From contig JBEKQV010000001.1 in NCBI GenBank assembly GCA_049519355.1, positions 193-64,192 of the forward strand: a DNA stretch of 64,000 nt. Reading direction: 5' to 3'. The DNA comes from Candidatus Microgenomates bacterium. Lineage in GTDB: Bacteria > Patescibacteriota > Microgenomatia > UBA8517. The translations under genes were made by a program, and so were the position numbers. The notes under the pieces are model-generated. The model saw nothing but the letters and a program-made list of their open reading frames with translations, was not told the origin of the DNA and searched no databases. Positions 6,287-62,410 of the stretch are shown here, piece after piece (position 1 is the first letter of the stretch; the number at the start of each line of letters is the position of its first letter).

Positions 6287-6287
6287 T

Positions 6288-22822: not shown

Positions 22823-22823
22823 A

Positions 22824-24197
22824 TTATTTTGAAACAATATCAGATAAGCCATAGTATTCCGCGACAGTCCGATTTGTCCAATTATCTGGATATCCTTTAA
22901 TCTGAACTGAAGGAATTAATCCATTTTCCGGAAGTTTAGGAACCGTTATGGTTCCTTTTATATGTTTTAGGGAATCAATTCTAAGTAAGGATATCATATT
23001 GTCATACGCCAAACTATAACTTCGGGCAATATAAAAGTCCGTTCCAAGAGACGATTCTATCCTAAACGATGAAAAAATAAACAAAAAAGCTGCCCCAGAA
23101 ATTATCAACCTAAATATTGGAAAACGCTCAGCCCTAAGCAGTGCAAAAACCTGACCTAAATAAAAAGCCGCAATTTCAAGACTAACCAGCAGTATAAAAG
23201 CCAAGGTTATATCCGACCTGTCAGGAGGAATCCTTCCCAAAGTTTTAAAGGCCGGCAAAACATAAATGACGCTTAAAAATACTGGCAAACTCATGGCTAT
23301 GAAGGTTTTACTGATTGAAGTTTCTAAACTAGTCTCTGCAGATTTAAAGGTTGAAAAAAGATATGCTAAGCAGCCAAAAAGTGTCAGGATAAACAAATAG
23401 TTTCCGGCAAAAATTGAATAAAGAATACTCGGGCCTGTCTGCAAAGAATATAGTATAGCGCCTCCCAGACTCATCGGATTTGATCCTCCCCCAACAAGCC
23501 TGACTCTGTTTCCCGGCGCAAAATAAACAACGGCAAATGATCCCCATGACACCAAGAAAAGCAAAGCCGCCATTGGTTTCATCTTTTTAGCACAAAATGA
23601 ATAGGTCAAGAAACCCATGGTTACTACAACAATAAGAGTAGCCACAGTTTCATTACCCCCGACCGCCAAGAAAAGAAAAAGAGAAGCCAAAACGTAGGAA
23701 AAAATTTTATAATTTCTAATTAGAACAATACCAATTACAAAAACTAAAAAAATAATCGGCCACAAATAAGTTACGCTCCCCGATAGCCAATACCAGCTTT
23801 CAGACTTGTTGGGTGTCAAAACGTACAACGAGACTAGTGAAATCAAAGAAAAAGTCACTATATACAAAATATTTTTTTGAACGGAAATCTTGCGGAATAT
23901 AATCAATAAAGAAATAATAAAAACTCCCAAAGTAACAAGAGAATATATTAGAGTTTTACTATTCACACCCGACATTAGACTGAAAAGCATTTGTAAAAAG
24001 GTTGAGGTAAATCGTCCGGTCCAATTTATATACCAATTTTTCTCAGCACCGAAAAAACCCAATCTTTTGGCCATGTCAGCATAACTGAAGTCGTCGGCAG
24101 CCATTCTTCCGAAAGGAATAATCGAAAAAAACTTAATTAGCCCAAGCACCACACCCGTCAAAACGGAAAAAACAACATATTTAGATAATTTTTTCAT
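22824..24197 (-). CDS. Polytopic membrane protein; I speculate a Wzy/O-antigen-polymerase-like role
   Basis: 457 aa with about 12 transmembrane segments. No nucleotide-binding or GT-A/B motifs. Confidence 0.3.
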   Translation of the reverse strand: MKKLSKYVVFSVLTGVVLGLIKFFSIIPFGRMAADDFSYADMAKRLGFFGAEKNWYINWTGRFTSTFLQMLFSLMSGVNSKTLIYSLVTLGVFIISLLIIFRKISVQKNILYIVTFSLISLVSLYVLTPNKSESWYWLSGSVTYLWPIIFLVFVIGIVLIRNYKIFSYVLASLFLFLAVGGNETVATLIVVVTMGFLTYSFCAKKMKPMAALLFLVSWGSFAVVYFAPGNRVRLVGGGSNPMSLGGAILYSLQTGPSILYSIFAGNYLFILTLFGCLAYLFSTFKSAETSLETSISKTFIAMSLPVFLSVIYVLPAFKTLGRIPPDRSDITLAFILLVSLEIAAFYLGQVFALLRAERFPIFRLIISGAAFLFIFSSFRIESSLGTDFYIARSYSLAYDNMISLLRIDSLKHIKGTITVPKLPENGLIPSVQIKGYPDNWTNRTVAEYYGLSDIVSK

Positions 24198-24211
24198 TTA
24201 TGACTTTATCT

Positions 24212-25819
24212 CTACCACTCGGATTCGTGAGCCGATACTAAAAAGTATGCATCAGAGCCATCTGGATATTTTATCAAATCTTTTATATCAAATGACGATC
24301 TATACATTAACCCATCATATTGGCTTGGTGTAAGAACGTAAAGAACAAATGGAAGAGGTTGGCTATTTATGGGGTCCCAACCCGAAAATTGGAAAATCCC
24401 GAAAGATTGGGCAACATTATAGCTTTTGCTCTGGCTCTCATCATAAACAACAGTTCTGAGATAATCCTGAACGGGGTAATGGAGGTAGTTCAAAATAAAA
24501 ATGTAGGGTTGTTGTCTGTCTTTAGTCATATAGACCCTTTCATACTCGGGATGGTCTTTAATATAAGTGGCAATTTGCTTCATACCATACTGCCACTCAA
24601 TGGCATCCTTTTTGGCATATTTCGTATAGTAATAATTCAAGTAACTTGAAAATTCCCAAAGCATCGGCACAAATGCCGCAATAACCAAAGCACCCTGAAA
24701 CATTTTATTTTTAAAAAGATTTACAATACTATACAGTCCATAAGCGGCTATTAGTTGTTCGCTTCCCATGATAAAAAGCCCTCTAGCCGCATTTGGTGTT
24801 GTCCCCGCTAAAGTTCCCGGTATCGGAGCAAGCGCTATCCAGCCAAGAAGCACTAGCCACTCTTTCCTCGGTTTAATTAACATTGCCAAAATTCCCATAA
24901 GCAGTAATAAAGCATCGATTTGATAAAACTCCCCGAAAAATTTTACCGAATTTCTTGGATTTTGGTCACCGCTAAGAAAAAGGTAATCTACTGAGAAATA
25001 TTTCGGATAATTACTAGCCGCAATCTGGGCAATTCCCAAGTACTTATTTCCGGTTTTCTTAAAAAGGCTTGTGGCTTTAATCATATCCTCACCAAACATT
25101 GTTTGCTGGGCCCTGGCAAAACCGAGAAGCTTGGGGTTTAAGGCAAAACCTAGAATAAAAAAACCAAGGATAAGTCCGCTAACAATAAGTGCCTTCTTAT
25201 TTTTAATCAAATCTTTAAAGTACAAAATACAAAGAAGAATGATCATCGGCGGCACAACAACAATTGAAGATTGATAAGAATATAAACTCAATCCAAAACC
25301 TAAAAAGGCCAAGGGAAAATACCAATGGTTCTTTTCTTTCCCCAGATAAAAAAACAGTAGACCAAAAATAAAGAAGAAGAATGCAAAATTTACTTCCCAC
25401 AATCCTCTAGAAAACTGTAAATGATATGGCGATATCGCCAAAAAAATCGCCGCCAGGTATGCCGGAAGATCTTTTTTAAATAAACTTTTTGCTAAGAAAA
25501 ATATTACGGCAACCCCAAGTACCCCAAAGACAGCGCTGGGAAAACGCGTACTAAAATCGCTAGGCCCTATAAATTTAACAAATACGGCATCTATATAAAT
25601 ATGAACCGGGTGCTTATCATCGTAAAAGGATTGAAAAACCAAAGGAAATTTGTGACCCCATTCGTCAACTCCCCAATTGGCAATCGTATAAGCATTGTAA
25701 CCCGCATCTACCTCGTCCCAGTTTAATGACGGGGGAATTTGGTCAAGTTTGTAAATCCGGAGGAATGCAGCGCCAACCAAAATAGCGAAAAGAATATAAT
25801 ATTTAAGATTTTTTTTCAT
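24212..25819 (-). CDS. GT-C membrane glycosyltransferase, PMT_2/ArnT-like (family A, paralog 1)
   Basis: 535 aa. Loop-1 LNWDEVDAGYNAYTIANWGVDEWG, mid-protein DYLFLSGDQNPRNS and C-terminal AIEWQYGMKQ are shared with the other family-A members. Confidence 0.65.
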   Translation of the reverse strand: MKKNLKYYILFAILVGAAFLRIYKLDQIPPSLNWDEVDAGYNAYTIANWGVDEWGHKFPLVFQSFYDDKHPVHIYIDAVFVKFIGPSDFSTRFPSAVFGVLGVAVIFFLAKSLFKKDLPAYLAAIFLAISPYHLQFSRGLWEVNFAFFFFIFGLLFFYLGKEKNHWYFPLAFLGFGLSLYSYQSSIVVVPPMIILLCILYFKDLIKNKKALIVSGLILGFFILGFALNPKLLGFARAQQTMFGEDMIKATSLFKKTGNKYLGIAQIAASNYPKYFSVDYLFLSGDQNPRNSVKFFGEFYQIDALLLLMGILAMLIKPRKEWLVLLGWIALAPIPGTLAGTTPNAARGLFIMGSEQLIAAYGLYSIVNLFKNKMFQGALVIAAFVPMLWEFSSYLNYYYTKYAKKDAIEWQYGMKQIATYIKDHPEYERVYMTKDRQQPYIFILNYLHYPVQDYLRTVVYDESQSKSYNVAQSFGIFQFSGWDPINSQPLPFVLYVLTPSQYDGLMYRSSFDIKDLIKYPDGSDAYFLVSAHESEW

Positions 25820-27348
25820 CTAGAATAAATCCAAAGGGAAACTGTTCCGTTCAAATTCTTGATTTCGCCAACAGGGTTAACCCCTTTTATTTTGTCATCG
25901 TTACTGGCAAAAACCAGTGTATTTTTTTGCAAATCGGTGAGCTGAATCTTCTTAAAAACAAATTTACCAAAGCTTTCTACTGTCGAAAAACCCCAATTAT
26001 TTACGGGGTTATACATCACCGTCTGCCTAAAAGAATTAGGGTCATATTTTAGATAAAAAAGCGCAAATATATACGGCTGGGCATAATCGTCTGAGATAAT
26101 TACCTTATTATATTTTGCAAAATCATTTTTGTATGTCAAGAAAATTTCCTTATATCCATATTGCCAATCCCCCGAATTCTTTTGGGAATAACTATTAATA
26201 AAATGCCAAAAGTTGAGACCGAATAAAACTAAATATAAAATCACAACCAATACCAGCACAACAGATTTATAAATCTTGGGAATTATTTGAATAAAATAGT
26301 TTAACCCAATGGCACAAATAATCGCCAAGGCTGGAGCAAATAATATTGCTCTTAAAGCGTGCGGTGATTGTGTAGTTATTGCTGCAGGAATTGGAGAAAG
26401 AATTAATAAAAAAAATGGTAAATAAAGTTTTAAATTCCTTTTCTTGAAAATATATATTAACCCGAAGAAAAATAGCGGCAAATCCACTAAATAAACTTCC
26501 CCGTTCCCAAACCCATTGCTACGGGAATTGCTATCACCCGAGATAAATAGAAAGTTGAGACTATAATGAGAAAGATAATTTCCCGTAATTTGCGGGATGC
26601 TTGAAAGCTTTAGTGGAACCCCTACGGTACTTAGCCTAACTGCACCGGCATCATACTTATACAATCGATATATCGGTATAACGGAAACCAAAAGGAATGC
26701 AAAAGATATGATTAGTGGTACTACATAATTCTTCATTTTGCTTCTGTTAGTTAACAAAAATACAGGAACAGTAATTAAAAGAAATAAAGGCAAAATTACT
26801 CTAAAAGAGTTGTAGCTGTAAATTGAGCCGATAAACGAAAAGGATGCCACGATAAACCATTGAGGATTATCAAGAGCGAGAATAGATAAATATATCCCAA
26901 GGAGAAAAAACATCACTCCTGCCGAAGCTTCGTACCCTACCCTTGAAAAAATGAAAAACCATGGTGAAATTGATATAAAGAAGGCAGAAAAAAGAGCCGC
27001 AGATTTATTTTTCGCTATTTTCAAAGTAAGAAGAAACAAAATAATTACCGTTCCCAGGGAAAAAAGCACAGCGGGAAATCTGACACTAAATTCACTAAGT
27101 CCAAAAAGTTTTACAAAAATAGCGGTTGTATATATATAAACAGGTAGCTTAAACTCACCAAAGGCCCGAAAATGTACCGGAAGGATTGCCCCCCACTCAT
27201 CTTTTAAATTTTGCGAAATAGAATAGGCGTTATAACCAATCGAAGCCTCATCCCAATAAAGTGAGGGCGGGCTTTTGGTAATTCTAAATAAACGGGTGAA
27301 AAGAAAGAGAGCAACAATTAGACTCAGCAGAAGATACAATTTCTTCAT
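25816..27348 (-). CDS. GT-C membrane glycosyltransferase, family A paralog 2
   Basis: 510 aa. LYWDEASIGYNAYSISQNLKDEWG, NFLFISGDSNSRSNGFG, SGDWQYGYKE. Confidence 0.65.
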   Translation of the reverse strand: MKKLYLLLSLIVALFLFTRLFRITKSPPSLYWDEASIGYNAYSISQNLKDEWGAILPVHFRAFGEFKLPVYIYTTAIFVKLFGLSEFSVRFPAVLFSLGTVIILFLLTLKIAKNKSAALFSAFFISISPWFFIFSRVGYEASAGVMFFLLGIYLSILALDNPQWFIVASFSFIGSIYSYNSFRVILPLFLLITVPVFLLTNRSKMKNYVVPLIISFAFLLVSVIPIYRLYKYDAGAVRLSTVGVPLKLSSIPQITGNYLSHYSLNFLFISGDSNSRSNGFGNGEVYLVDLPLFFFGLIYIFKKRNLKLYLPFFLLILSPIPAAITTQSPHALRAILFAPALAIICAIGLNYFIQIIPKIYKSVVLVLVVILYLVLFGLNFWHFINSYSQKNSGDWQYGYKEIFLTYKNDFAKYNKVIISDDYAQPYIFALFYLKYDPNSFRQTVMYNPVNNWGFSTVESFGKFVFKKIQLTDLQKNTLVFASNDDKIKGVNPVGEIKNLNGTVSLWIYSR

Positions 27349-28997
27349 ATTTTCTGAACAATTTGGAAGTCCCCCTTACCGTCAAGGAAATTAATCTGAT
27401 CTAAAATCGGGGTACCTACAGGAAAATCGCCAGGTTTACCGATAAAAAGAATCTTTTTGCCGGGATTGGCTTTGAGTACATCCTGATAATGAGTTCCCGA
27501 ATCTCCCAGATCAGGAAAGTAAAACTTATCAAACTTTAAAACCCATTCCCAATTATTGGCTATAAATCTATCCAAATTAGGATTATTTTGATATTTAGCC
27601 GGATCATATTTCAAGTAAAAGAGCGTAAACATATACGGCTCGCCATATGTGCGGGACATTACAATTAGATCGTAGTTATTGTAATTCTTCTGGATATAAG
27701 AAACGGCTTGCTCATAACCATATTGCCAATCTTCGGAATATTTGTATGGGTAGACATCGTAAAAAAGATAAAGATAATGATAAAAATTGTAAGCCGCAAA
27801 AACTATCGTTGCACCCCAGACTATATAACTAATTATTTTCTTGTCCTTAAGCCATAAATATGTTTCATAAATTCCATAGGCGGTAATCATCTCGTAAAAC
27901 GGCTCGGCAATTATAGTACGCAATGCATTAGGGATACTGTCATCCGTTGTTGCAACCGGGATAAAAGCAATAAGAAGCCAACTTATAAGTAACCACCTAA
28001 AGGGTGATTTCTTTTTGAAAAGGAAATAAAGTCCCAAAAGAATGAAAGGTGCTTGAAATTGATAAAGTTCCCCCATTCCCTGAACATTATGTTGCTTGTG
28101 CCCCGCGCCGGAAATAAATAAGAAATCGGGGGTAAAATGGGCCAAATAGTTCTCGGTAAAATACATACTTACATAAGTCACCCTGTTATAGATAAGCCTC
28201 GTTAAAAGCGGGGGCAGTTTTGAGTTATTCCTAGCTTGATCGATTCTTGGAATCAGTCCCGGATCATTAGTAATACTAACCAACTTATAACGGTCAGTTG
28301 CCTGCCCATTAAGTACAATTGGAACGAGGGGTGCTACCAAGACAAATAGTAAAATCGCTGCAGCAACGGCAAACTTAATATTTTTAAGAAATTCTTTTCT
28401 GTAAATAATTAAAATCGCGAGAAGGAAAAGCGGTGTAAAAACTCTGGCACTATTGTATGTATAAACTGAAATTGCAAAAGGGACGGCAGATACTATCCAA
28501 TAAATAGGTTTTTTAAATCCCAAAATCAGAAACCAAAGACCGAGAACCACCCAAAGAACTGAAAAAGACGACTCAAAAGAGACCCGGGTTAGCTGAATAT
28601 GCCAAGCCGAAGTCGCAATTAAAAGTGAAGTGAGAAGCGCAACACTTTTCTTTTTAAATAAGACGTAAGTTAGAAAATAAGCAGTCAGAACCGTTAGTAC
28701 TCCGTAAATAACTGGCGTAATCCTGACGGAAAAATCATTTAATCCCAAGAGGGCTATTGCCGGAATTGAAGCGTAAATTTGAGCAGGAAGTTTGTATTCG
28801 CTATAAGATTCAAAATTTAGGGGAAGTTTCACTCCCCATTCATCCTTCCCTGTTTTAAGAATCGAATAGGCATTATATCCGATTGCAACCTCATCCCAAT
28901 TTAACGAGGGTGGATCGGAGGTAAGCTTGTAGAACCTTAAAACAAAAGCCAGCAACAAGACTGCGGCCAAAAGAATAGGGTAAATTATCTTTTTCAT
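27345..28997 (-). CDS. GT-C membrane glycosyltransferase, family A paralog 3
   Basis: LNWDEVAIGYNAYSILKTGKDEWG, DFLFISGAGHKQHNVQGMGELY, SEDWQYGYEQ. I prefer the start at MKKIIYP (28997), which has a GAGAGUGGAG Shine-Dalgarno stretch immediately upstream. Confidence 0.65.
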   Translation of the reverse strand: MKKIIYPILLAAVLLLAFVLRFYKLTSDPPSLNWDEVAIGYNAYSILKTGKDEWGVKLPLNFESYSEYKLPAQIYASIPAIALLGLNDFSVRITPVIYGVLTVLTAYFLTYVLFKKKSVALLTSLLIATSAWHIQLTRVSFESSFSVLWVVLGLWFLILGFKKPIYWIVSAVPFAISVYTYNSARVFTPLFLLAILIIYRKEFLKNIKFAVAAAILLFVLVAPLVPIVLNGQATDRYKLVSITNDPGLIPRIDQARNNSKLPPLLTRLIYNRVTYVSMYFTENYLAHFTPDFLFISGAGHKQHNVQGMGELYQFQAPFILLGLYFLFKKKSPFRWLLISWLLIAFIPVATTDDSIPNALRTIIAEPFYEMITAYGIYETYLWLKDKKIISYIVWGATIVFAAYNFYHYLYLFYDVYPYKYSEDWQYGYEQAVSYIQKNYNNYDLIVMSRTYGEPYMFTLFYLKYDPAKYQNNPNLDRFIANNWEWVLKFDKFYFPDLGDSGTHYQDVLKANPGKKILFIGKPGDFPVGTPILDQINFLDGKGDFQIVQKI

Positions 28998-29038
28998 CTC
29001 CACTCTCATGTTAACAGCTTCAAAACGGCAAGTAAAAT

Positions 29039-30523
29039 CTAATGAAGAGCCGATTTACCGAGTACAAAGAAGCGCCAAATAACCGGATAATATAGATTCG
29101 AGAGAACTGTTGAAGGCACCATGGGACAAGTCTGGCTCTCACACTCAATTTCATAAGCGTTATAAACGTATTTAACGTTCCACCACATTCCTACAACAAC
29201 CACTCCTACAATAACCAGCTGCGAAATCTTTTTAAGCCAGTTTTTATTAAAGATCGTATTGGCAAGCGACGGGGTTAAAAGTGCCGAAAAAGTTAAACGG
29301 TAAGTATCGGGAGTAACATTGGGTCGAAAAGCATTAACCAAAAGTGCTCTACTTCCTAGCAAAAACCCCGAGGCAAGAAAAGAAGCAAAAAAATCGGCTC
29401 GCTCAAAAATATATTGAATTCCCCAAGCTCCCAGAATCGCCAAGAAAGGTAAAGCCGGAAAACGGTACCAAGCCAAAAGGTCGCCTTCACCGGAAGAAAG
29501 CATTACAATTATTACCCAATAAACAAAACTCAAGCTAATAAATTGTTTGAGTTTATCTTTGGGTTGAAATATAAAAAATACCGCAGATACCAAACAAAAA
29601 ACATACCAGCTGCTTTTGAAAATCGACGTACTATAACTTGGGGAAATGAAAAACCAGGACAAACTGTTAAAACCTGCGGGACGGAAACCCTGTATGGAAA
29701 TTATTCGTTTGAAAATTTCCGGGCTGAAATGAAAACCATACCAAATATAAACTGCAACAAAAGGAAGTGTTGTCAAAACTAAATAAGAAAGATTCTTAAG
29801 AATAGACTTCCACCTAACCGGCTTTTTCCTATAAAGTTCGGCAAAGACCACATAAAGACTCAAACCCAAAATGAAATAACCCGTTGGTTTGGAAAGACCT
29901 GCAATCCCAACCAAAATCGGAATCGGAGCTAGATAAATGAACTTGGTCACTTTTTGATATTTCAAAAGTAAATAAACAACTAAACAAAAAAGAAAAGCAA
30001 TTAGAGTCTCCGGCATCGCAGTTCTTGATGCAAAAACCATAATCGGTTCAGTTCCGTAAATCAGCATTGCCAGAATTCCGGTCCAGAAACCACTGACCGA
30101 ATCCGCAATCAAAAAAATCAAAACCGAAGTAAGTGCCGAAATTAGTACAACGGGAAACCTAATATAAGATGAAGGTATCCAACCGTTTCTATCTGCGTGG
30201 AATAAATGTGCTGCCTCCCCAACAAGAAGAGAGAATAAAGGCGGTTCGTCAAGCCAGGGCTTATACAAAGTTACGGATGCGGAAGGAGCTCCACCCAAAT
30301 AAGAAATTACCCCCTTAAAAACTTCCGCGCTTTTGGGATAATCGAGTGTTGACCATGAAATCGGCACCCCGGTTTCAATTAAATTTATTCCAGAAAGAGC
30401 AAAAAGCTGTTCATCCAAATGGTTTGCAGTCGGAACCCTTTCATAATTGTGGGCTCTCAAAATAAATGTAAAAAGAAAGACAATCAAGAAAACAACAATT
30501 TTAAAATTTCGTGTTTTTAACAT
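29039..30523 (-). CDS. GT-C membrane glycosyltransferase, ArnT-like variant (family A')
   Basis: 494 aa. HLDEQLFALSGINLIETGVPISW loop-1 DE motif and 11 or more transmembrane segments. Confidence 0.55.
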   Translation of the reverse strand: MLKTRNFKIVVFLIVFLFTFILRAHNYERVPTANHLDEQLFALSGINLIETGVPISWSTLDYPKSAEVFKGVISYLGGAPSASVTLYKPWLDEPPLFSLLVGEAAHLFHADRNGWIPSSYIRFPVVLISALTSVLIFLIADSVSGFWTGILAMLIYGTEPIMVFASRTAMPETLIAFLFCLVVYLLLKYQKVTKFIYLAPIPILVGIAGLSKPTGYFILGLSLYVVFAELYRKKPVRWKSILKNLSYLVLTTLPFVAVYIWYGFHFSPEIFKRIISIQGFRPAGFNSLSWFFISPSYSTSIFKSSWYVFCLVSAVFFIFQPKDKLKQFISLSFVYWVIIVMLSSGEGDLLAWYRFPALPFLAILGAWGIQYIFERADFFASFLASGFLLGSRALLVNAFRPNVTPDTYRLTFSALLTPSLANTIFNKNWLKKISQLVIVGVVVVGMWWNVKYVYNAYEIECESQTCPMVPSTVLSNLYYPVIWRFFVLGKSALH

Positions 30524-30560
30524 CCTATGTTTTTAATTATACTGCTCAAAAATCCATTCT

Positions 30561-32222: not shown

Positions 32223-32971
32223 TTTTTAAACAAAAGTTTTATTTTTGGTATTGATGCGGTCAGTCCTAAATAAAGAACAATATTCATAAACGGAAACATC
32301 AGTACCGGACCGGGATTATATGCAGGACTGAGAAAACCGGTAAGTACCAACGCAAACAAGAAATATGCAATCAAGAATAAATATTGCCGATAATAAATTA
32401 TTAAAAATAATATTCCGATAACAAAAAGGGGCAAAACAAAAGGAGAATATTTATTAGTCTCAACAATACCTGCCTTTTCTCTAGGGTGACTTTGGAAGAA
32501 ATACAGATTGGGATCCAAGGTATAAAAAACATTTCGCAAATATTTACCGGCACCCAAATTAAAATCTAAATAATAATGTTGGGCATACCTATTTGTAAAA
32601 ATTATTCCGAGGCCATTAGCTAAAATTCCATGTCTCTCATTAAGAACATTTATTTCGGTTGGTGAATTGGTTAACAGGGTTTTATCAAATTTATTTCTCA
32701 AGATAAAACCGCAAGCCATTGTTAAAAGTAAAACCGAGATCAAGATGGCATCCCTCCAATGTTTTCTTAGTTCTTTCAGCGTAATCAAAACAAAAATCCC
32801 AAACTCAATAATTAATAAAACAATACTTATGACGAGGTTACTTAAAAGTATTTGCCAAATCCAATAATTTGCTAAGGTAAGAATTAGCAGATATAGACAT
32901 TTCTTGTAAAAATTACGCGGCTTGGGTAATCTCATCACATTACGATATACCCAATCGATATAAATCTGCAA
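32219..32971 (-). CDS. Integral membrane protein of unknown function
   Basis: 250 aa with six hydrophobic segments. It is coupled to the downstream family-A gene by a 4-nt overlap. Confidence 0.45.
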   Translation of the reverse strand: MQIYIDWVYRNVMRLPKPRNFYKKCLYLLILTLANYWIWQILLSNLVISIVLLIIEFGIFVLITLKELRKHWRDAILISVLLLTMACGFILRNKFDKTLLTNSPTEINVLNERHGILANGLGIIFTNRYAQHYYLDFNLGAGKYLRNVFYTLDPNLYFFQSHPREKAGIVETNKYSPFVLPLFVIGILFLIIYYRQYLFLIAYFLFALVLTGFLSPAYNPGPVLMFPFMNIVLYLGLTASIPKIKLLFKK

Positions 32972-33027
32972 CTTATTATCATTGCTGATTTTAGTAAATC
33001 ATCGCAATTGATATACTATGTTTTGTA

Positions 33028-34521: not shown

Positions 34522-34548
34522 AGAAGTGTAATATTAAGTATCAGATCA

Positions 34549-49757: not shown

Positions 49758-49763
49758 TTTCTT

Positions 49764-52950: not shown

Positions 52951-52987
52951 TCATAGATTGTAGCATGCCTGAAGATAATAATTTAGC

Positions 52988-54493: not shown

Positions 54494-54501
54494 AAATACA
54501 T

Positions 54502-55983: not shown

Positions 55984-55986
55984 ACC

Positions 55987-57516
55987 TTACTTTAATAATG
56001 TTCTTTTTTGAACAACTATTCCACCAAAATTCTTCTGTTCAACTACAGCAGTCTTTGAGTTCTCCTCGCTTATTGCATCATCAACAAAGTTTTGAGGAAT
56101 CCCTTCTTGAGGTTCTATAATAAAATAATAGATTTGGATATTCTTGGGCGTATCGGGAAGAATATCACCTATATCGCCCACCTGGCTTCTTCCGTGCCAG
56201 TATGGCAAATAACCATACTTACCCAATCCGTACCAGCTATACATATATGACCACGTTGTGTTCAACCAAAGGGGAGCGGTAATGCTATTGATACTAAATC
56301 TTTGACCACCGGATGATTGATATGTGTAATCTACTGCCTGTTCTAAATTAGAAAGGACCATTTCCCGCCTTAGTGTAAAAATTGTCTGACCATCCTTGTT
56401 TTCCGATAATATTTTCGTTAAACCTGAAAGAATAACTATAAAAGTTAAGATAACGGCAAAAATTTTCGACTTTTTCCAAATTGCCGAAATAAACATGGCA
56501 GCCAAAATACATACGGCTATTCCTATCCCGACAGTCAAATAGGGTGTATCGTTTCCGCCAAAAAAAACTACGGGTAAATGGGAAAAAAGATAAAGTAGCA
56601 AAAAAAACTTCGGGTCTTCCAAATGATTTTTCGATTCCCTTCCCCACTTTTGTGTAAACCAAACAATCATAACAAAACCTATAAATCCTCCAAACCCCAA
56701 ACTTAGGGGAAAAAGATTAAGGGAAAAAGTTTTACCAATCTGATTCAGATAAACAACTATAAAATCTCCAAAGCCTTTTACACTTAATAAAGTATTTCCT
56801 CCAGTAAAAAGATAGATTAATCCTTTTATTCCAGTGAGACCAAACTTGATCTGAGAAATCCAAATAGTACAAGTTCCTGCAATAAGTCCGCCCACAAACG
56901 CGCCAAATTGCCTGAGAGTAATACTCTTCTTACAAATAATAAGCCAAGTGGCAATGGCCGCAATGTGGTAGGCAAGAAAGAGATCGGATTGGATAGAGAA
57001 ACCAAAAAAAACGCCGGTAAGAAGTGCGTACCAAACATTTTTATTCCTTGTCCATAACCAAAGAAATAAATATGTTAGAGGTACAAACAAAAGGCCTATT
57101 GTTGGATTTGAAAGCCATGTCGCATATTGGCTCGCCTCAAACGAAAAAACAAAAAATAATGATGACAATAACGAGACGTCCCTCTTTCTAAATAAAAAAA
57201 ATGACAAGAAGTAGACAACGAAAACCGTTGCTGAGCTAAAGAACGCAAGCCAATAATCGGCAACGACAGGATTACCTTTTGAAGCAAAATAAGGTACGGC
57301 AAGAAAATAATCATACAAAACTCCATGATAAAGACCTGGGGCATTTGCAGAAGGACCCTGAATTTTTATGTCTCCAGCAATAATTTGTTTAACAAAAAAG
57401 GCGTCGCGGGCTTGATCGTAAGAAAAAGTTATCGCCGATTTATTTAGGTAAAGAACACGTAGTAAAAATCCGATTACAAATATGACCGAAACAGTTAGAA
57501 AGCTTTTTTTGTTCAC
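55987..57516 (-). CDS. Polytopic membrane protein, family D paralog 2
   Basis: 509 aa. FSYDQARDAFFVKQI and ...GGIVVQKRTLLK at the C-terminus (compare family D paralog 3, ...GGITVQERERTLYTK). Confidence 0.45.
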   Translation of the reverse strand: MNKKSFLTVSVIFVIGFLLRVLYLNKSAITFSYDQARDAFFVKQIIAGDIKIQGPSANAPGLYHGVLYDYFLAVPYFASKGNPVVADYWLAFFSSATVFVVYFLSFFLFRKRDVSLLSSLFFVFSFEASQYATWLSNPTIGLLFVPLTYLFLWLWTRNKNVWYALLTGVFFGFSIQSDLFLAYHIAAIATWLIICKKSITLRQFGAFVGGLIAGTCTIWISQIKFGLTGIKGLIYLFTGGNTLLSVKGFGDFIVVYLNQIGKTFSLNLFPLSLGFGGFIGFVMIVWFTQKWGRESKNHLEDPKFFLLLYLFSHLPVVFFGGNDTPYLTVGIGIAVCILAAMFISAIWKKSKIFAVILTFIVILSGLTKILSENKDGQTIFTLRREMVLSNLEQAVDYTYQSSGGQRFSINSITAPLWLNTTWSYMYSWYGLGKYGYLPYWHGRSQVGDIGDILPDTPKNIQIYYFIIEPQEGIPQNFVDDAISEENSKTAVVEQKNFGGIVVQKRTLLK

Positions 57517-57520
57517 TTTG

Positions 57521-58546
57521 CTATAAAATTCTTAAAACACTTTCTCCGAAAACTTTGTACCCGAATTTTTTAGAAGATTCCTGGGCTTTAATTCTTAATC
57601 CTGTAAGGGAAACCTTGCCTTCAATAATAGACATTGTTATCTTTCTCAAATCACCTTCGTTTTTCCACAAAAAACCGTTTACTCCGTTTTGGACTATTTC
57701 CTCATGGCCTCCGGCATCAAAGATAATCGGGACCGCTCCCGCAGCTAATGCCTCAACCACGGTAATCCCAAAATGCTCAACTTTTTCGGGGTTTTTATCT
57801 TCGTTGACTCCAAATCCGGAAGCACTCCAAAAAACTTTTGCTTTTCCGTATAAATCTTTCAGGGTTTTAAAATCGGGGCTCTCCACAAATTCAATCGGAT
57901 AGCCTTCCGATTCATCCTTTAATTCCTTCAAATAATCACCAGCCCCAATTTCCGCTCCCCCGGCAAGAATAAGCTTCCAGTCTTTCAACCCCTCGTTAAA
58001 CAACTTCTTGAACGTCCTGATTAATATTTCCTGACCTTTATTTTGAAGGATATGGGAAAACCTGCCCACGAAAAGAATTACATTCTCTTTTCTCTTTGGT
58101 TTAATATTCTCAACATCAATCGGCGGGTAAATCACCAAGCCATTAACTCCATACTCTCTATCTATAAAACTTTTTGTAAAATTTGAATTGCAAACAATTT
58201 TATTTATCCTAAAAAGCTTCATTCTATTTAAAAGGCTTTTGCCGCCTATGTTATGAAACGGGACCTGAAAATGAAGAATGTTTTTCCTTGCACGTAAGGT
58301 GGGGATGCTTCCGTCGGAGACCCAAAAACACAAATCATAACCGTCGCCTCTTTTGATGTCTTTTACAATATTTATTTCACTAAGATCTATCCCGAAACGA
58401 TTTTCAAGGATCTCCTTTATTCCGATATCTTTCCATTCCAAATCAACCATATATCCATTCTCGACAAGAACACGGGCGAAAGCGGTAGTATAACGCTCTC
58501 CCCCTCCCAATGTGTCCAAATACGGATTATAAATTGCTGCTCTCAT
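57521..58546 (-). CDS. Family 4 glycosyltransferase (GT-B)
   Basis: 341 aa. GGGERYTTAFARVL and GITVVEALAAGAVPIIFDAGGHEEIV. Confidence 0.7.
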   Translation of the reverse strand: MRAAIYNPYLDTLGGGERYTTAFARVLVENGYMVDLEWKDIGIKEILENRFGIDLSEINIVKDIKRGDGYDLCFWVSDGSIPTLRARKNILHFQVPFHNIGGKSLLNRMKLFRINKIVCNSNFTKSFIDREYGVNGLVIYPPIDVENIKPKRKENVILFVGRFSHILQNKGQEILIRTFKKLFNEGLKDWKLILAGGAEIGAGDYLKELKDESEGYPIEFVESPDFKTLKDLYGKAKVFWSASGFGVNEDKNPEKVEHFGITVVEALAAGAVPIIFDAGGHEEIVQNGVNGFLWKNEGDLRKITMSIIEGKVSLTGLRIKAQESSKKFGYKVFGESVLRIL

Positions 58547-59243
58547 GTTTTATTTGAAGCTCCCAAAGTTTAGAATATGTGATTAACCTACTAAACGTCT
58601 GATAAATTATTTCTATTATTCCTACGGTTCCGTCCAAAAAACCAAGCTTAACAATTCCCCTATACCAAAATTCCCTAAAACCGGCACTGAAAAATCTAAT
58701 TATATTCATCTCTGGATGACCAGAATCGTATAAAAGTTTTGCTTCAATTTCCGACCATTTGTTCGTTTTTTCAACCATCTCAGTAATATTCCTGTGACTA
58801 ATATGAATAAGGGGTTCTTTCAGATGGGCCGTGAACCCGACTATTTCCGGTTGTTCGTGCAATTCTCCTTTCCAACCCTTTAGTTTATCTTTCTCAATGA
58901 GCCTTAAAACAAAATCAGGACTCCATCCGCCCCAATGCATTTCGTGACCCAAAAAAATATTTTTACGGGGAATCGCGTAAGCGGAAAACTCGTTAGTTCC
59001 GATTACTTGTAGAATCATCTTTTTAAGTTCCGGTGTTACCTCTTCGTCGGTGTCTAAATACAACAACCAATCCCCTTTTGCTTTTTTTGCTCCCTCATTT
59101 CTCCAGTCGGCAAAGCCTCCCTTGATTTTTGATGTATCAACCTTCACTATCTCATCACACCAAGCGACTGAGTCTAGACACTTAACCAATAAGTTTTTAT
59201 CGACCACACCCCCGATTAAAACTATTGCACTGATTTTTGTCAT
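58527..59243 (-). CDS. GT2-like glycosyltransferase
   Basis: 238 aa. ISAIVLIGG...CLDSVAWCDEIVKVD and YLDTDEE. This subtype is shared with 59245..60141 and 21956..22822. Confidence 0.55.
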   Translation of the reverse strand: MTKISAIVLIGGVVDKNLLVKCLDSVAWCDEIVKVDTSKIKGGFADWRNEGAKKAKGDWLLYLDTDEEVTPELKKMILQVIGTNEFSAYAIPRKNIFLGHEMHWGGWSPDFVLRLIEKDKLKGWKGELHEQPEIVGFTAHLKEPLIHISHRNITEMVEKTNKWSEIEAKLLYDSGHPEMNIIRFFSAGFREFWYRGIVKLGFLDGTVGIIEIIYQTFSRLITYSKLWELQIKHESSNL

Positions 59244-59244
59244 T

Positions 59245-60141
59245 CTAAATTTTTAATTTACGTCTTATACGATCACCCAACTTCCCAGACTCTTTATATG
59301 AGGAGTCAAATTCCCAATAGTGCAAGTCTTTTTCCTCATCTCGAAAAACACTAATAACTTCGGACAAGTTTGGATTTTGATCGCTAAATTTTTCTTTCTG
59401 CCAAACTTTAAGATAAACCGACAACTCCGAAAAAGCCTGGAGTAAAGAAAGAGCCAACCCATGCAACCCGTCTTTATAACCTTCACCAAAAAAATAACGG
59501 CTTAAAAATTCATTCGACGGTTTAAGAATTAAATCTTTCCACAAAAATTTATAGCCTTCTTTAATTCTAAGAAGTGCATGCTGAGTTGAATAAGCATTCA
59601 TTCGTTCTAGATACTGCTCAACAGAATCATAATTGTGATGAATTATTGCAAATTCCTCTTTGTCTTCAATTTCCCCGCCAACTCCCTGTGTCATGGGAAC
59701 CATGTGGATTATTTCATTCCAAGAAACGGTGCCTTTTTTGAAAAGGCGAATATTGTAATCTGGCCACCAACGTGAGTGTTGCATCCAATGCCCAAAAATG
59801 ATATTTTTCCTGGGAATTCTAAAATAATCGGCTTTTGGTTCTTTCAAAACCCGGCTAATTTTTTGTGCAAGCGAGATAGGTACTTCTTCATCAGCATCAA
59901 GAATGAAAATCCATGGATTTGAAGCTTTTGAAATAGCAAAATTTCTGGCAGGTTCCACATATCCGGTTTTTTCATGAGTGAAAACCTTAGCTCCCAGTGA
60001 TTTAGCCACTTCGGCAGTTTTATCTTCCGACTCCATGTCGACAACTATAATCTCGTCCGCTAAGTTTTTTATGGAGGTTATTGCCTTCGGAAGGTTCTTT
60101 TCTTCGTTAAGTGTATTTATTACTACCGAAATCTTTTCCAC
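59245..60141 (-). CDS. Family 2 glycosyltransferase
   Basis: 298 aa. KISVVINTLNEEKNLPKAITSIKNLADEIIVVDMESEDKT and ILDADEE. Confidence 0.7.
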   Translation of the reverse strand: MEKISVVINTLNEEKNLPKAITSIKNLADEIIVVDMESEDKTAEVAKSLGAKVFTHEKTGYVEPARNFAISKASNPWIFILDADEEVPISLAQKISRVLKEPKADYFRIPRKNIIFGHWMQHSRWWPDYNIRLFKKGTVSWNEIIHMVPMTQGVGGEIEDKEEFAIIHHNYDSVEQYLERMNAYSTQHALLRIKEGYKFLWKDLILKPSNEFLSRYFFGEGYKDGLHGLALSLLQAFSELSVYLKVWQKEKFSDQNPNLSEVISVFRDEEKDLHYWEFDSSYKESGKLGDRIRRKLKI

Positions 60142-60161
60142 AAGCTCAATTGTAGCACTAA

Positions 60162-60908
60162 TTAGACCTTATATTTTCCCTGAAGAGCGTTAAGACGGAC
60201 CAAGATAAGCCCCCTAAGCCCTTCGATTGAGTCCTTAATCGGGTCAACTTTTGTTCCCTCTTTGTGATGCCAGTCAACCGGAACCTCGGCAATTCGGTAA
60301 CCAAGCTTTCTGGCAACGTAGAGAATTTCCAGATCAAATCCGGCCGTAACTGAGGCTCCAGTATTTTCACTCGTGGCATTGAAAATTTCCAAGCGCTTAA
60401 AAATCCCTTCGGCAGATGAATTGGTAAACGCCTTAAAGCCACACTGGGTGTCTTTAAACGGAAGTCTCAAAATTAAAAGACGAAGAAGGGAAAATCCCGA
60501 AGCCATGATTTTACGAATTAGCGGTGCCCCTTCCCTTCCGTGGCGGGAACCGATAACGACATCGTAGCCCTCTTTAAATTTCGGCAAAACCTTTTCAAGC
60601 TGATCTATCGGCGTCGCCTGATCGGCGTCGGTAAATAAAATTATGTCGCCTCTTGCTTTAAGCATACCGGCAATCACCGTTCCACCTTTTCCCCTGTGAG
60701 GTTCAGTCAAAACCGAAAAATTATTGTGTTTTTTGGCAAAATCTTCCGCAATTTTTAATGTAGAGTCCGTTGAGCCGTCATCGACAAACAGAATTTCCCA
60801 GGAGTATTTTTGTTCTTTGAGATAATCGTAAACGGAATCCAGAACTCCTGTTCGCAAGTTATATTCTTCATTGAAGGCCGGTATAACAACGCTTAAAAAC
60901 GGTTTCAT
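60162..60908 (-). CDS. Polyprenyl-phosphate sugar synthase (GT2; DPM1/GtrB-like)
   Basis: 248 aa. LSVVIPAFNEEYNL...ILFVDDGSTDST...LFTDADQATP; short catalytic-domain-only form. Confidence 0.65.
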   Translation of the reverse strand: MKPFLSVVIPAFNEEYNLRTGVLDSVYDYLKEQKYSWEILFVDDGSTDSTLKIAEDFAKKHNNFSVLTEPHRGKGGTVIAGMLKARGDIILFTDADQATPIDQLEKVLPKFKEGYDVVIGSRHGREGAPLIRKIMASGFSLLRLLILRLPFKDTQCGFKAFTNSSAEGIFKRLEIFNATSENTGASVTAGFDLEILYVARKLGYRIAEVPVDWHHKEGTKVDPIKDSIEGLRGLILVRLNALQGKYKV

Positions 60909-62410
60909 TTTGTATATAACGTCCTTTCCCTTTCTTGAACCGTGATTCCGCCAAACGAAACCTGCTTGATAACTTTCCCGATTCCTTTTTGCCTACCAAG
61001 CCAAGCCTGAAGCCGCTCAGGATGCGGCGGGTCAACTTCATATAATGTAAATAGAAGTGGAATTTGCTGATCAACCGGCAGCTTATGATACTTTGTGGTT
61101 CCAAGCCATTCAAACAAATAATTATATGAGTAGGGAATTACGGGCGGGACATATTCATCAACATTAAAATTCTGCGAACCTGCATTTTTGTAAATCCAAT
61201 CTATTGCTTCCTCTTGATTAACCAAGCAGATACTCTCCGTCCCTTGGCAAGTGTCGTGAATCCTCCCCCAAACAACAGGAACGTTATTGATATAAAAAAG
61301 AAAGAAAAAACAAAGCACAAAAACCACACCGATGATTTTCAACTTCCAAATTCTTCCCAATACAATTGCAAAAAGCAAAATAAAAATCAGGTAATAACCG
61401 GTCATGTAATAGTCATATAAAATTCCGTAATTTCCCTGATAAAAATAAAGTCCGACAACTGCAGATAACAAAAGAAGTAAAATTACATTTACCTTAGTGT
61501 TCTTAATTAGTTTTGGTAAAAACGCCAAAAATGAAATTCCTGTAATTACCATTACCGCGGAATTAAAATTATTTCCAGACTGGAAAATTTTGTTTGTAAA
61601 AATATTAACGTAATCTGAAGTCCTGGATTTAATGAAAACCCAACTTGGCATTCCAAAGCTTCCGCTACCCATACCGAAAGTCCCAAATAAATTATGCAAA
61701 AGAATATGTTGATGTTTAATATCAAACAAAACAAGTGGCGCAAATGTCAGAAAAAATAAAATTGCTGATAAAATAAAATTTTTTAAATCAGGTCGATTTT
61801 TCCACTGCCAGATTAAAAAAATCGCCAACGCAGGAAAGTAGAAAAACTCACCTGAAGAACCAAAACTAAAAAGTGATAGTCCCGCAACCGTGGCAATAAC
61901 CGGCCAGCCCCACTTTTTTCCTTCAGTCACTTTAATCATTGCCCAAACCAATACTAAAGAAAGCAGAAGCATCGGCGTGGGATTACTTAACCAGCGGGAG
62001 GCCAAAACTATATTAAATGAAAATCCGGCAATAATTGCAGCTATTATTCCCGTAGTTTTATCCTGAATTTTCGTCCCAAGGTGGTATATCAACCAAACCG
62101 CAACCACTGTGGTAAATGCCAAAAATACAAACGGCAAAATCGGACTCCCGTGTCCTATCCAATAAAATGGTGCAAGAAGATAATAATAATAAGGCGCTCT
62201 AAAAATTCCGGGCAGCCCTGTGGTTGGACCTATTAAGAAAAATTTGTGGTTGTAAATAAAATCCCAAATGACCAAAGCATCGCGGCCCTGATCGTAATAA
62301 AAATTTAAGATTTGATTAACTCTAAAAACCCTGAGGATAAAAGCACCAATTAAAATAATAGAAATTAAAATATTCTGAACAGAAAAAATTTTTTTAATCT
62401 TTTTTGGCAT
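60905..62410 (-). CDS. Polytopic membrane protein, family D paralog 3
   Basis: 501 aa. FYYDQGRDALVIWDF and C-terminus GGITVQERERTLYTK. Confidence 0.45.
   Translation of the reverse strand: MPKKIKKIFSVQNILISIILIGAFILRVFRVNQILNFYYDQGRDALVIWDFIYNHKFFLIGPTTGLPGIFRAPYYYYLLAPFYWIGHGSPILPFVFLAFTTVVAVWLIYHLGTKIQDKTTGIIAAIIAGFSFNIVLASRWLSNPTPMLLLSLVLVWAMIKVTEGKKWGWPVIATVAGLSLFSFGSSGEFFYFPALAIFLIWQWKNRPDLKNFILSAILFFLTFAPLVLFDIKHQHILLHNLFGTFGMGSGSFGMPSWVFIKSRTSDYVNIFTNKIFQSGNNFNSAVMVITGISFLAFLPKLIKNTKVNVILLLLLSAVVGLYFYQGNYGILYDYYMTGYYLIFILLFAIVLGRIWKLKIIGVVFVLCFFFLFYINNVPVVWGRIHDTCQGTESICLVNQEEAIDWIYKNAGSQNFNVDEYVPPVIPYSYNYLFEWLGTTKYHKLPVDQQIPLLFTLYEVDPPHPERLQAWLGRQKGIGKVIKQVSFGGITVQERERTLYTK

Follow-up and report, generated by a model that had tools for sequence, protein, structure and literature searches.

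An ancient, conserved array of GT-C-type glycosyltransferase genes in Microgenomates, probably dedicated to extracytoplasmic glycan assembly

In a stretch of Microgenomates DNA of 64,000 nucleotides (the window), an array of genes for polytopic membrane proteins at positions 22824-62410 probably forms a fixed, lineage-wide extracytoplasmic glycan assembly locus that is fed by polyprenyl-phosphate sugars and is not strain-variable. The preliminary description had counted about 25 polytopic proteins here; its observation of a large membrane-protein array is confirmed and its ORF coordinates agree with ours, while the true count is 23 and its interpretation is only partly supported. Its claim that one locus holds twenty or more candidate GT-C genes is borne out, as 20 of the 23 are demonstrably GT-C-fold glycosyltransferases or clear relatives (seven in family A, three each in B, C and D, two in E, the single family F gene, and U387). 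That leaves a Wzx flippase, a DUF6056 protein and U250, which looks like a piece of a family A gene. Glycan biosynthesis genes occupy the window from end to end and continue for at least 10 kb on either side.

Public annotation of the array is generic ("glycosyltransferase family 39" (GT39), "ArnT-like" or "hypothetical"), and our literature search turned up no account of it. The earlier caveat that wide conservation and prior annotation would remove its novelty is partly borne out: conservation across Microgenomates is wide, but existing annotation is generic only. The source organism belongs to the candidate phyla radiation and is ultra-small and uncultured, its DNA being available as a MAG.

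All-vs-all BLASTP recovered the four paralog families proposed previously, seven genes in A and three each in B, C and D (genes are on the minus strand unless marked +). Family A, at 24-33% identity (E 1e-15 to 1e-80), comprises the PMT_2-type GT-Cs A1 (24212..25819; PF13231 E 1e-18), A2 (25816..27348; PF13231 E 3e-12), A3 (27345..29009; the member that was modelled), A6 (37361..39088; PF13231 E 3e-10) and A7 (39085..40716; PF13231 E 8e-11, with a weak STT3 match at E 6e-5), the PMT-type A5 (35709..37364, +; PF02366 E 3e-6), and A4 (30561..32222), a BLAST paralog without a Pfam match. Pfam PMT_2 (GT39/GT83-like) also takes in families D, E and F: E1 with its long loop 1 (29039..30523; PF13231 E 1e-10, PF02366 E 5e-7), E2 (33028..34521, +; PF13231 E 7e-8), the PMT_2/PMT-type F (52988..54556; PF13231 E 7e-13, PF02366 E 4e-10), and, at 21-31% identity to one another, the divergent D1 (54502..55983; PF13231 E 2e-5, 25.1 bits against a 26.1-bit cut-off) and D2 (55987..57516; PF13231 26.9 bits) together with D3 (60905..62410; PF13231 E 7e-9). 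Family C (29-35% identity) corresponds to Pfam PF10131, with C2, a PTPS_related membrane protein (46367..48082; E 2e-11, 43.3 bits against a 26.4-bit cut-off), above the cut-off; C3 (48027..49757; PF10131 E 7e-5 and PMT_2 E 9e-5) below the respective cut-off for either model; and C1 (44743..46422), without a match of its own, placed as a PF10131-like GT-C relative by family BLASTP, alignment and family C profile matches. Family B (29-39% identity) consists of B1 (40716..42728), B2 (42725..44791; 38.5% identical to B1) and B3 (49764..51464), a BLASTP paralog directly downstream of the flippase gene that lacks the N-terminal three-helix extension of about 100 aa found in B1 and B2. The suggestion that B, C and D are undescribed GT-C clades therefore holds for family B alone, which no Pfam or NCBIfam model matched, C being PF10131 and D divergent PMT_2.

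Profile comparison with hhalign interlinks all of the families at probabilities of 70-99.6% (D with A at 99.6%; C with A at 97.5% and with D at 97.1%), while the Wzx control scored at most 1%. The profile searches returned PMT_2/PMT matches and, for C2, PF10131, and the AF2 models (pLDDT 89-90) carry the GT-C fold. The confident model of family B is closest to the oligosaccharyltransferases STT3, AglB and PglB, a likeness that is a fold ranking only, at TM-scores of 0.43-0.48.

The motifs quoted in the preliminary description are all present, and most are kept when the alignments are enlarged with orthologs from other genomes (family A numbered after the protein at 27345). In family A, D39 (66/67), E40 (65/67) and D56 (66/67) are nearly invariant, and in the model D39-E40 open the first helix of loop 1 at its N-terminal end; the C-terminal WQYGY block is conserved in part (W 49/67, G 30/67). 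Family B keeps D144 (61/63), W147 (60/63) and H148 (61/63), all on the first loop-1 helix of its model, and N174-Y175-H176 (60-61/63), and family C keeps D48 (55/55), D49 (51/55), R70 (55/55), D74 (54/55) and FPWRFL (52-55/55). In family D the sole universal residue is D40 (15/15).

The acidic loop-1 motifs are predicted to lie outside the cell, as supposed previously, on the combined showing of model helix boundaries, the positive-inside rule and natural fusions. Given the AF2 boundaries, the short K/R-rich loops of family A (N-terminal MRVEMKK, KK119, FKKP165, RKEFLK204, KKSPF333 and KDK388) all share one side, so that loops 1 and 4 lie outside together with the C-terminal domains. For family B the same orientation of loop 1 follows from fusions present in many genomes, in which a signal-anchored soluble domain (with a weak, sub-threshold DUF3863 match) precedes four or two helices and then loop 1.

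Several members depart from this pattern, and some may be inactive or act differently, to judge from their sequences. A6 and A7 lack the second acidic pair, DE(W/F)G. U387 (34549..35712, +; PMT_2-related, hhalign 99.5% to family A) has on inspection a short loop 1 that lacks the DE pair, is also devoid of the C-terminal domain, and weakly resembles repeat-unit polymerases (TIGR04370 E 7e-4, below cut-off). U250 (32219..32971; 250 aa, six TM helices), with orthologs in at least three loci, resembles only the middle of a family A protein (hhalign 96% to columns 192-383) and looks like a truncated paralog or remnant. The 457-aa DUF6056 protein (22824..24197; PF19528 E 7e-22) has an invariant D35-D36 after TM1, and a link to GT-C was not established by profile comparison (hhalign 68% with family B, 56% with family A) or by direct protein comparison with A5 (3%).

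Three further GT-C-like genes lie beyond the array. One, at 13787..15304, encodes a 505-aa protein with eight TM helices (hhalign 95% to family D; no match in a Pfam search). The second, a nine-TM protein (20859-21959; hhalign 93% to family A), sits between a GT4 gene (19867-20874) and a GT2 gene (21956-22852) in a block assigned by Pfam (19867..22852), whose GT4 and GT2 are also found downstream of A1 in Woesebacteria-type loci. The third is a PMT_2 gene of about 513-518 aa (hhalign 88% to family D) whose 3' part (63393..64000) leaves the window; its PMT_2 assignment is that of positions 8435-9991 in L001.

The flippase and the two GtrB/DPM1-like genes recognised earlier also stand. The former (51445..52950) is a Wzx-type lipid-linked oligosaccharide flippase of the MOP family (PF13440 E 6e-54; PF01943 E 1e-26); it adjoins B3 in at least about 45 loci, and one Wzx+domain+B fusion protein exists. 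The latter are GT2 genes whose best matches are polyprenyl-phosphate-sugar-synthase-like. For the candidate polyprenyl-phosphate-hexose synthase at 60162..60908, PgfS leads (E 3e-23), followed by dolichyl-phosphate hexose transferase (2e-18) and the undecaprenyl-phosphate 4-deoxy-4-formamido-L-arabinose transferase model (6e-17), none of which reaches its NCBIfam equivalog cut-off. The other (18207-18896) matches PpgS over its full length (NF058614 E 2e-29, below cut-off) and precedes a gene for a small DUF2304 membrane protein (17849-18187; PF10066 E 6e-18). PpgS pairs with the DUF2304 protein Rv3632, and the two genes here (17849..18896) are a candidate polyprenyl-phosphate-HexNAc synthase pair. 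AglJ is also among the best NCBIfam matches of the synthase-like GT2 genes, and since these matches fall far below the equivalog cut-offs, any donor named is a guess. The window holds no stand-alone GtrA-type flippase and no priming phosphoglycosyltransferase; a GT2+GtrA_DPMS_TM fusion lies 4-5 kb past its end. A cytoplasmic Leloir trio assigned by Pfam (57521..60141: GT4 57521-58546, GT2 58527-59243, GT2 59245-60141; gt2b-gt2c-gt4b) accompanies the array in at least about 40 loci.

From these parts we infer donors, an order of action and an acceptor. The cytoplasmic GT2 and GT4 enzymes (57521-60141 and 19867-22852) would assemble a polyprenyl-diphosphate-linked oligosaccharide, which Wzx would move to the membrane's outer face, while DPM1/GtrB/PpgS-like GT2s (60162-60908, 18207-18896 with its DUF2304 partner, and the GT2-GtrA fusion) would load single sugars onto polyprenyl phosphate. 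On the outer face, about 20 GT-C enzymes with an outward acidic loop 1 would then work, most of them (families A, C, D, E and F) each contributing one particular residue or linkage as the glycan grows. Family B, by its adjacency to Wzx and its fold closest to STT3/AglB/PglB, is the best candidate to handle the lipid-linked unit once flipped, either transferring it en bloc or polymerising it.

An alternative that we hold to be unlikely, if worth serious consideration, is that the GT-Cs act in parallel on separate surface proteins (S-layer, pilins) or lipids, PMT-like members O-glycosylating and family B N-glycosylating, so that no single complex glycan is made. The PMT/PMT_2 matches, a DE pair in loop 1 such as protein O-mannosyltransferases typically have, the nearness of the family B fold to the peptide-modifying STT3/AglB/PglB and DPY19, and a parts list like that of archaeal Agl N-glycosylation (AglJ-, AglG- and dolichyl-phosphate-hexose-transferase-like matches) all fit this idea. 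Known protein-glycosylating systems, however, require only one or a few GT-Cs, whereas twenty are individually conserved here, and Pfam reported no MIR domain, typical of true PMTs, in the array proteins. Among the closest known systems, PMT (GT39) O-mannosyltransferases and ArnT (GT83) also differ in coming as one or few per genome, against at least seven paralogs here; the PMT-like members show 11 predicted TM helices and a 130-aa alpha/beta C-terminal domain, and no sequence-level match to any solved structure was found. None of 44 family B members matched Pfam STT3, the DK/MI motif was not identified in the family, and in place of a pair of DXD motifs only the loop-1 residue D144 and D180, close to the end of that loop, are invariant; a W-x-D-T-G-Y comparable to WWDYG is conserved in the B1 orthogroup only (W 39/63, D 34/63). 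The domain fused to family B provides no link to protein substrates, and the window contains no candidate target protein gene.

The preliminary description also suggested combinatorial glycosylation or a reservoir for glycan variation, with paralogs gained, lost or switched, for example against phage or host recognition. The array does have many tandem paralogs, a three-gene block opened by E2 (33028-37364, +) that is inverted relative to its neighbours, a U387-A5 pair found in either orientation among Woesebacteria loci, and accessory genes (A4, A5, A6, D, E2, F, U387 and U250) present in fewer loci than the core; several assemblies also break within it. Against this, the paralogs are ancient: their proteins are 21-39% identical, the best DNA match between them is 67% over 380 nt, and no pair is recent. 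For every paralog, 3-60 other Microgenomates loci carry an ortholog closer to it than its best paralog in the window, counts that are lower bounds because comparison loci were viewed at ±10 kb. Examples are A1 (up to 77% identity, in Woesebacteria-type loci), A2 (at least 27 loci), E1 (up to 80%) and B2 (70% in locus L007), and A7 is among the most widely conserved members (at least 56 of 79 loci). Across these 79 loci from Daviesbacteria, Woesebacteria, Shapirobacteria and other Microgenomates the orthogroup order is conserved, with Wzx-B3-C-C-C-B-A7...A3-A2-A1-GT2-GT4 kept between the class-level lineages Daviesbacteria and Woesebacteria. Within the species, six contigs shown of 23 read have identical gene order wherever they overlap, and no inverted repeats were found beside the inverted block. 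We regard variation as largely refuted for the core and quite improbable as an account of the array. The structure and profile searches effectively refute the idea that the proteins are transporters or structural membrane proteins of similar hydrophobic composition, which has next to no chance of being right, even if B, A4, C1, U387 and U250 singly lack a significant Pfam match.

The fixed assembly locus that we favour resembles known three-component extracytoplasmic systems (GtrA/GtrB/Gtr-type GT-C; CsbB/GtcA/YfhO; the GT136 pentofuranose system, PMC11127046), in which a GT-C modifies a glycan outside the membrane and works with a flippase and a GT2 polyprenyl-phosphate-sugar synthase, and all three component types occur in the window or within 5 kb of it. 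In those systems, however, one GT-C decorates a finished polymer and is often accessory or strain-variable, whereas here about 20 conserved GT-Cs of at least six families make up the bulk of a lineage-wide locus with a Wzx flippase embedded among them. Another known system like the proposed pathway is the mycobacterial arabinogalactan/lipoarabinomannan network (EmbA/B/C, AftA-D, Mpt enzymes, PimE and PpgS-Rv3632-Rv3779), where many GT-Cs act in sequence outside the membrane, with polyprenyl-phosphate sugars, on one complex envelope glycan; our structural matches include AftA, AftB, AftD, EmbA and PimE, and the PpgS-like GT2 and DUF2304 partner are a further likeness. The Microgenomates proteins differ in that by sequence they belong to none of the Emb, Aft and GT87 families, and their genes form one contiguous array in a CPR bacterium of about 1 Mb, not scattered genes in an actinobacterium. 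The product is probably a complex cell-surface glycan on the membrane's outer face, and the many distinct enzymes conserved here suggest a complex heteroglycan that would ultimately be carried on lipid, wall or surface protein.

Within 22824-62410 we found 28 ORFs, 23 of which encode polytopic membrane proteins, in a window that is nearly all coding, on the minus strand, with a GC content of 32-40%. All-vs-all BLASTP sorts these proteins into family A (A1 to A7, at 24212, 25816, 27345, 30561, 35709(+), 37361 and 39085; 24-33% identity), family B (B1 to B3, at 40716, 42725 and 49764; 29-39%), family C (C1 to C3, at 44743, 46367 and 48027; 29-35%), family D (D1 to D3, at 54502, 55987 and 60905; 21-31%), a weak pair E (E1 and E2, at 29039 and 33028(+)) and the singleton F at 52988. 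Families A to D are the same groups that the preliminary description had proposed, and the motifs quoted there are all present, most being kept once orthologs from other genomes are added to the alignments; the array itself was also recovered, its polytopic members numbering 23 where about 25 had been estimated. GT-C-type genes account for 20 of the ORFs and 32.6 kb of coding sequence, and at least three further relatives lie elsewhere in the window, at 20859, at 13787 and in a partial gene from 63393 on. Self-BLASTN of the window revealed no recent paralog copies, the top DNA match in the array being 67% over 380 nt.

A plus-strand block at 32972-37364, carrying E2, the small membrane protein U387 (34549(+)) and A5, sits inside the minus-strand array, bounded by a 56-nt divergent spacer (32972-33027) and a 4-nt convergent overlap (37361-37364). 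We considered whether 33028-37364 might be an invertible element and rejected the idea, as a search for inverted repeats on its flanks gave none. In Woesebacteria loci the pair U387-A5 can have either orientation (L038 versus L039 and L045). At the other end, a DHH/DHHA1 phosphoesterase gene (62394-63383, minus strand) is lodged between two PMT_2 genes and shares 17 nt with the start of D3.

In the Pfam search, PMT_2 (PF13231, gathering threshold 26.1 bits) is matched above threshold by A1, A2, A3, A6, A7, E1, E2, F, D2 and D3, below threshold by A5, D1 and C3, and not at all by A4, B1 to B3, C1, C2 or U387. Among the PMT_2 members PMT (PF02366) is often matched too, and A5 is assigned to it. 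Pfam reported no MIR domain in any array member (E <= 0.01); in true PMTs this domain sits in a large luminal loop that connects TM7 with TM8, and loop 4 of family A has only about 85 residues; because the MIR domain is missing, we regard families A, D, E and F as PMT_2 members rather than true PMTs. By sequence profile, family C is PF10131 ("PTPS_related membrane protein", gathering threshold 26.4 bits), with C2 scoring 43.3 bits and C3 a sub-threshold 21.9 bits; C1 has no match to this profile, yet shares 29-30% identity with C2 and C3. Families C and D had been suggested to be undescribed clades, a suggestion that we drop for both, C being PF10131 and D being PMT_2 (D2 and D3 above threshold). 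The flippase gene at 51445-52950 is of the Wzx (MOP) type, matching PF13440 at E 6e-54 and PF01943 at E 1e-26.

Comparison of the enlarged family profiles with hhalign, including orthologs from the best 79 other loci, links all of the families, while a Wzx profile used as negative control gave no more than 1% against every one of them. Probabilities were 99.6% for A with D, 99.5% for A with U387, 99.4% for A with F, 98.2% for A with E, 97.5% for C with A, 97.1% for C with D, 94.9% for B with D and 93.4% for A with B. U387 is thus a PMT_2 relative, having a short loop 1 but neither a C-terminal domain nor the loop-1 acidic pair; a role as Wzy polymerase was considered for it, on a sub-threshold match to TIGR04370, and was rejected on the profile comparison. 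The likeness of U250, at 32219, is confined to the middle of a family A protein. For the gene at 22824, DUF6056 by Pfam, hhalign gave 3-68% depending on the target profile, and we found no convincing link to the GT-C enzymes.

Searching every PDB chain with sequence profiles of families A and B returned no match; only fold comparison worked for them. The AlphaFold models of A3 (pLDDT 89.8, pTM 0.88) and B1 (pLDDT 89.1, pTM 0.92) are confident, and both match GT-C folds, as the preliminary description had anticipated; in these models the polytopic N-terminal module superimposes on solved GT-C enzymes, which places the proteins in that superfamily. Against known structures the A3 model scored 23.3 with AglB, 23.2 with ArnT, 22.2 with ALG12, 22.1 with STT3B and 21.4 with Pmt4. 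For B1, Foldseek is led by thirteen AglB/STT3/PglB/DPY19 entries (E 1e-8 to 6e-7), with ArnT and AftA lower at 3e-4 and Pmt4 at 5e-3. The loop-1 acidic residues are well kept in the enlarged alignments: D39 (66/67) and E40 (65/67) in family A, D144 (61/63) in B, D48 (55/55) and D49 (51/55) in C, and D40 (15/15) in D. We considered the "DWQYGY" stretch of family A as a degenerate form of the oligosaccharyltransferase motif WWDYG(Y) and rejected it, since it is only partly conserved and the A model has no preference for oligosaccharyltransferases over ArnT.

GT-C catalysis requires that the acidic motifs be extracytoplasmic. A simple hydropathy/positive-inside predictor gave contradictory parities between paralogs, arising from errors in TM segmentation, and we therefore used the helix boundaries of the AF2 models instead. 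In A3 the K/R-rich short loops are all on one side (N-terminal MRVEMKK, KK119-120, FKKP165-168, RKEFLK204-209, KKSPF333-337 and KDK388-390), the short loops of the opposite side having one basic residue altogether. The model is thus predicted to have 11 TM helices with the N-terminus inside and with D39-E40, DEWG, FLFISG and the C-terminal domain outside; the same reasoning predicts that D144, W147, H148 and the invariant K313 of B1 are outside. Natural fusions in family B offer independent support, as they have four or two helices between a signal-anchored soluble domain and loop 1, so that here too loop 1 comes to lie outside. Helix boundaries, the positive-inside rule and the fusions all predict that the acidic motifs face outward, in keeping with the GT-C proposal and against a cytoplasmic placement.

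Family B calls for separate discussion. None of its 44 members matched STT3 (PF02516) or any other Pfam family, even at E <= 10, and there was no NCBIfam match either, so the early suggestion that it is an undescribed clade stands. It has 1753 cluster representatives in 1.84 billion. We applied the sequence tests for STT3, AglB and PglB as defined in PMC3703281. No DXD pairs were found in the family B alignment, a DK/MI motif could not be assigned from sequence, and the W578-x-D580-T-G-Y583 stretch (W 39/63, D 34/63, T 56/63, Y 63/63) resembles WWDYG in part of the family only and not family-wide; "AWYDTGY" as a degenerate WWDYG(Y), partly conserved in the enlarged alignments, may be a weak lead. 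The B1 model does show the mixed alpha/beta "CC" unit characteristic of the C-terminal domain of STT3, AglB and PglB. As family B fails the sequence tests while sharing the fold and a CC-type domain, we consider it to be an oligosaccharyltransferase-like new GT-C family and not an oligosaccharyltransferase; in structure it stands between the ArnT/PMT-type enzymes and the oligosaccharyltransferases. Among the best 150 representatives of family B, about 35 are naturally fused proteins, with an N-terminal signal anchor and a soluble domain of about 450 aa ahead of the membrane protein (P0131, P0136, P0140, P0142, P0165 and others, from outside the window). This domain has conserved "NPVRG...W", "GIFFEITP" and "GAWWIDA" blocks, a weak DUF3863 match as its sole Pfam match, and no homolog in the window. 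In P0165 (1639 aa), Wzx, the domain and a family B protein form one polypeptide.

The array is embedded in other glycan genes, which run on for at least 10 kb past both window ends, so that the locus is at least 84 kb long. The B1 protein has 100% identity to one from a "Candidatus Microgenomates bacterium" MAG, and its sequence is also found on a contig of 872,458 bp. The first 22.8 kb of the window encode nonulosonic-acid synthesis (NeuB, a PseB-like dehydratase and an aminotransferase fused to a CMP-transferase), C- and O-methyltransferases (among them two of the FkbM type and a C-methyltransferase), GT2 and GT4 enzymes, epimerases, and a Wzm/Wzt ABC exporter with a weak Wzt_C domain. Positions 1-22800 are apparently a second, ABC-transporter-dependent glycan pathway, whose gene content suggests a methyl-capped, nonulosonate-containing polymer as its product. 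This cluster also holds a 435-497-aa protein without a family match and a DUF6492 protein, at 4979-6472 and 9151-10056 (both minus strand), and a direct DNA repeat (1-262 and 789-1050, 81% identical) that reflects a tandem duplicate of the SAM-methyltransferase gene at 338-1021; another sample's contig carries the two copies at 180 aa each.

Two GT2 genes are candidates for the synthesis of sugar donors. For the product of 18207-18896 the match is to PpgS, a polyprenyl-phospho-GalNAc synthase, and spans the full length (E 2e-29) but does not reach the equivalog cut-off; that of 60162-60908 has PgfS and dolichyl-phosphate hexose transferase as its best matches; the NCBIfam best matches of the two (PpgS, AglJ, PgfS and dolichyl-phosphate hexose transferase) range from E 1e-17 to 1e-29, far below equivalog cut-offs. 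Directly downstream of the PpgS-like gene is a 112-aa DUF2304 membrane ORF (17849-18187, minus strand; PF10066, E 6e-18), a pairing that we take to be reminiscent of mycobacterial PpgS/Rv3632. Pfam found no GtrA family gene in the window; 4-5 kb past its end there is a fusion of a GT2 with GtrA_DPMS_TM (5092-6306 of locus L001). No priming phosphoglycosyltransferase was found in the window, and tRNA and Rfam scans of it found nothing.

Using the profile of family B, we scanned a single genome for each GTDB species, which gave 145 matching stretches, kept the best 79 loci, searched these with HMMs of the window families and assigned each ORF to the closest window protein. Nearly every one of the 79 has a dense GT-C array, with conserved orthogroups in conserved order; those that are named are mostly from Daviesbacteria, Woesebacteria, Shapirobacteria and other Microgenomates. 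The Woesebacteria type, which includes a GT4 and a GT2 (gt4a and gt2a, at 19867-22852 in the window), reads gt4a-gt2a-A1-A2-A3-(E1/A4)-A7, B1, C1-C2-C3-B3-Wzx, while the Daviesbacteria type, which includes a glycosyltransferase trio (gt2b-gt2c-gt4b, at 57521-60141), reads (F)-C-C-C-Wzx-B3-B1/2-A7/6-(U387-A5)-gt2b-gt2c-gt4b-(E1-A3-A2). The window combines both patterns.

The preliminary description had raised the possibility that the array is a reservoir for glycan variation. Its many paralogs might invite such a view, but each array GT-C paralog has a nearer relative in 3-60 other loci than its best in-window paralog; within the species, 23 contigs from several samples were read, and the six of them that are shown agree in gene order wherever they overlap. 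Comparison between genomes thus speaks for conservation and against variability, and does not support the reservoir reading; the paralogs are ancient, individually maintained and presumably non-redundant. In one same-species contig from another sample (L091, 13632-15631) the B2 ortholog is split into two ORFs of 465 and 201 aa, against 673 aa, which may reflect a frameshift there or faulty assembly of that sample. Many MAG records with the array, from binchicken co-assemblies, are titled "uncultured Gammaproteobacteria bacterium" (L008, L009, L012, L016, L017 and many others) and one "Clostridia bacterium"; such taxonomic labels are probably wrong or serve as placeholders.

On the strength of fold and family, outward loops, synteny, and the association with Wzx, Leloir glycosyltransferases and DPM1/PpgS-like GT2 genes, we think it fairly probable that the array GT-Cs carry out extracytoplasmic glycan assembly. 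From this we infer a pathway in which the Leloir enzymes would build a lipid-linked oligosaccharide, Wzx would flip it, and the GT2 synthases would produce polyprenyl-phosphate monosaccharides, from which PMT_2-type and PF10131-type GT-Cs may each contribute one defined residue or linkage on the outer side of the membrane. The flipped lipid-linked unit may be handled by family B, since this family always neighbours Wzx, forms a fusion with it in one case, and has an oligosaccharyltransferase-like fold. The number of separately conserved GT-Cs speaks for a complex heteroglycan over simple glycosylation of proteins; its final carrier may be lipid, wall or protein. In logic the array is an expanded version of the three-component system of GT2 synthase, flippase and GT-C (PMC11127046); in scale it resembles the GT-C network for arabinogalactan and LAM in mycobacteria, or the ALG/STT3 pathway of the ER lumen.

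A bolder reading, which we hold to be rather unlikely as a whole, would make family B an unrecognised bacterial branch of the oligosaccharyltransferase lineage, serving an "ER-lumen-like" pathway for a lineage-defining envelope glycoconjugate. It draws on the three conserved B paralogs beside Wzx and on their STT3/AglB/PglB-like fold, CC domain included; a lipid-linked oligosaccharide would be flipped and then moved en bloc by the B enzymes, while about 17 GT-Cs of the PMT_2 and PF10131 types would extend the glycan before or after transfer, using polyprenyl-phosphate sugars. If so, host-dependent ultra-small cells would rely on the resulting glycoconjugate.

Full-text literature searches found no description of the locus, of GT-C arrays in the candidate phyla radiation (CPR), or of oligosaccharyltransferase-like enzymes there, the one related remark being a mention of "29 glycosyl transferases" for a Microgenomates genome (PMC7143001). 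Public annotation of the array genes is generic. The enzymology, GT-C enzymes with polyprenyl-phosphate sugars, is of a known kind; what is new is the scale, a fixed organisation shared across the lineage within a genome of about 1 Mb, and a GT-C family, B, that goes unrecognised by current Pfam and NCBIfam profiles.

CPR bacteria have genomes of about 1 Mb and are without most biosynthetic pathways. Despite so small a genome, this lineage retains a glycan locus that measures at least 84 kb, about one tenth as long as the longest contig seen (872 kb). That so much is kept under purifying selection across whole classes argues for an elaborate, so far unseen envelope glycan that is central to the biology of these organisms, for which host attachment, or envelope integrity where there is no outer membrane, would be fitting roles. 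With its defined gene set and conserved synteny signature, the locus is a starting point for the glycobiology of uncultured CPR bacteria.
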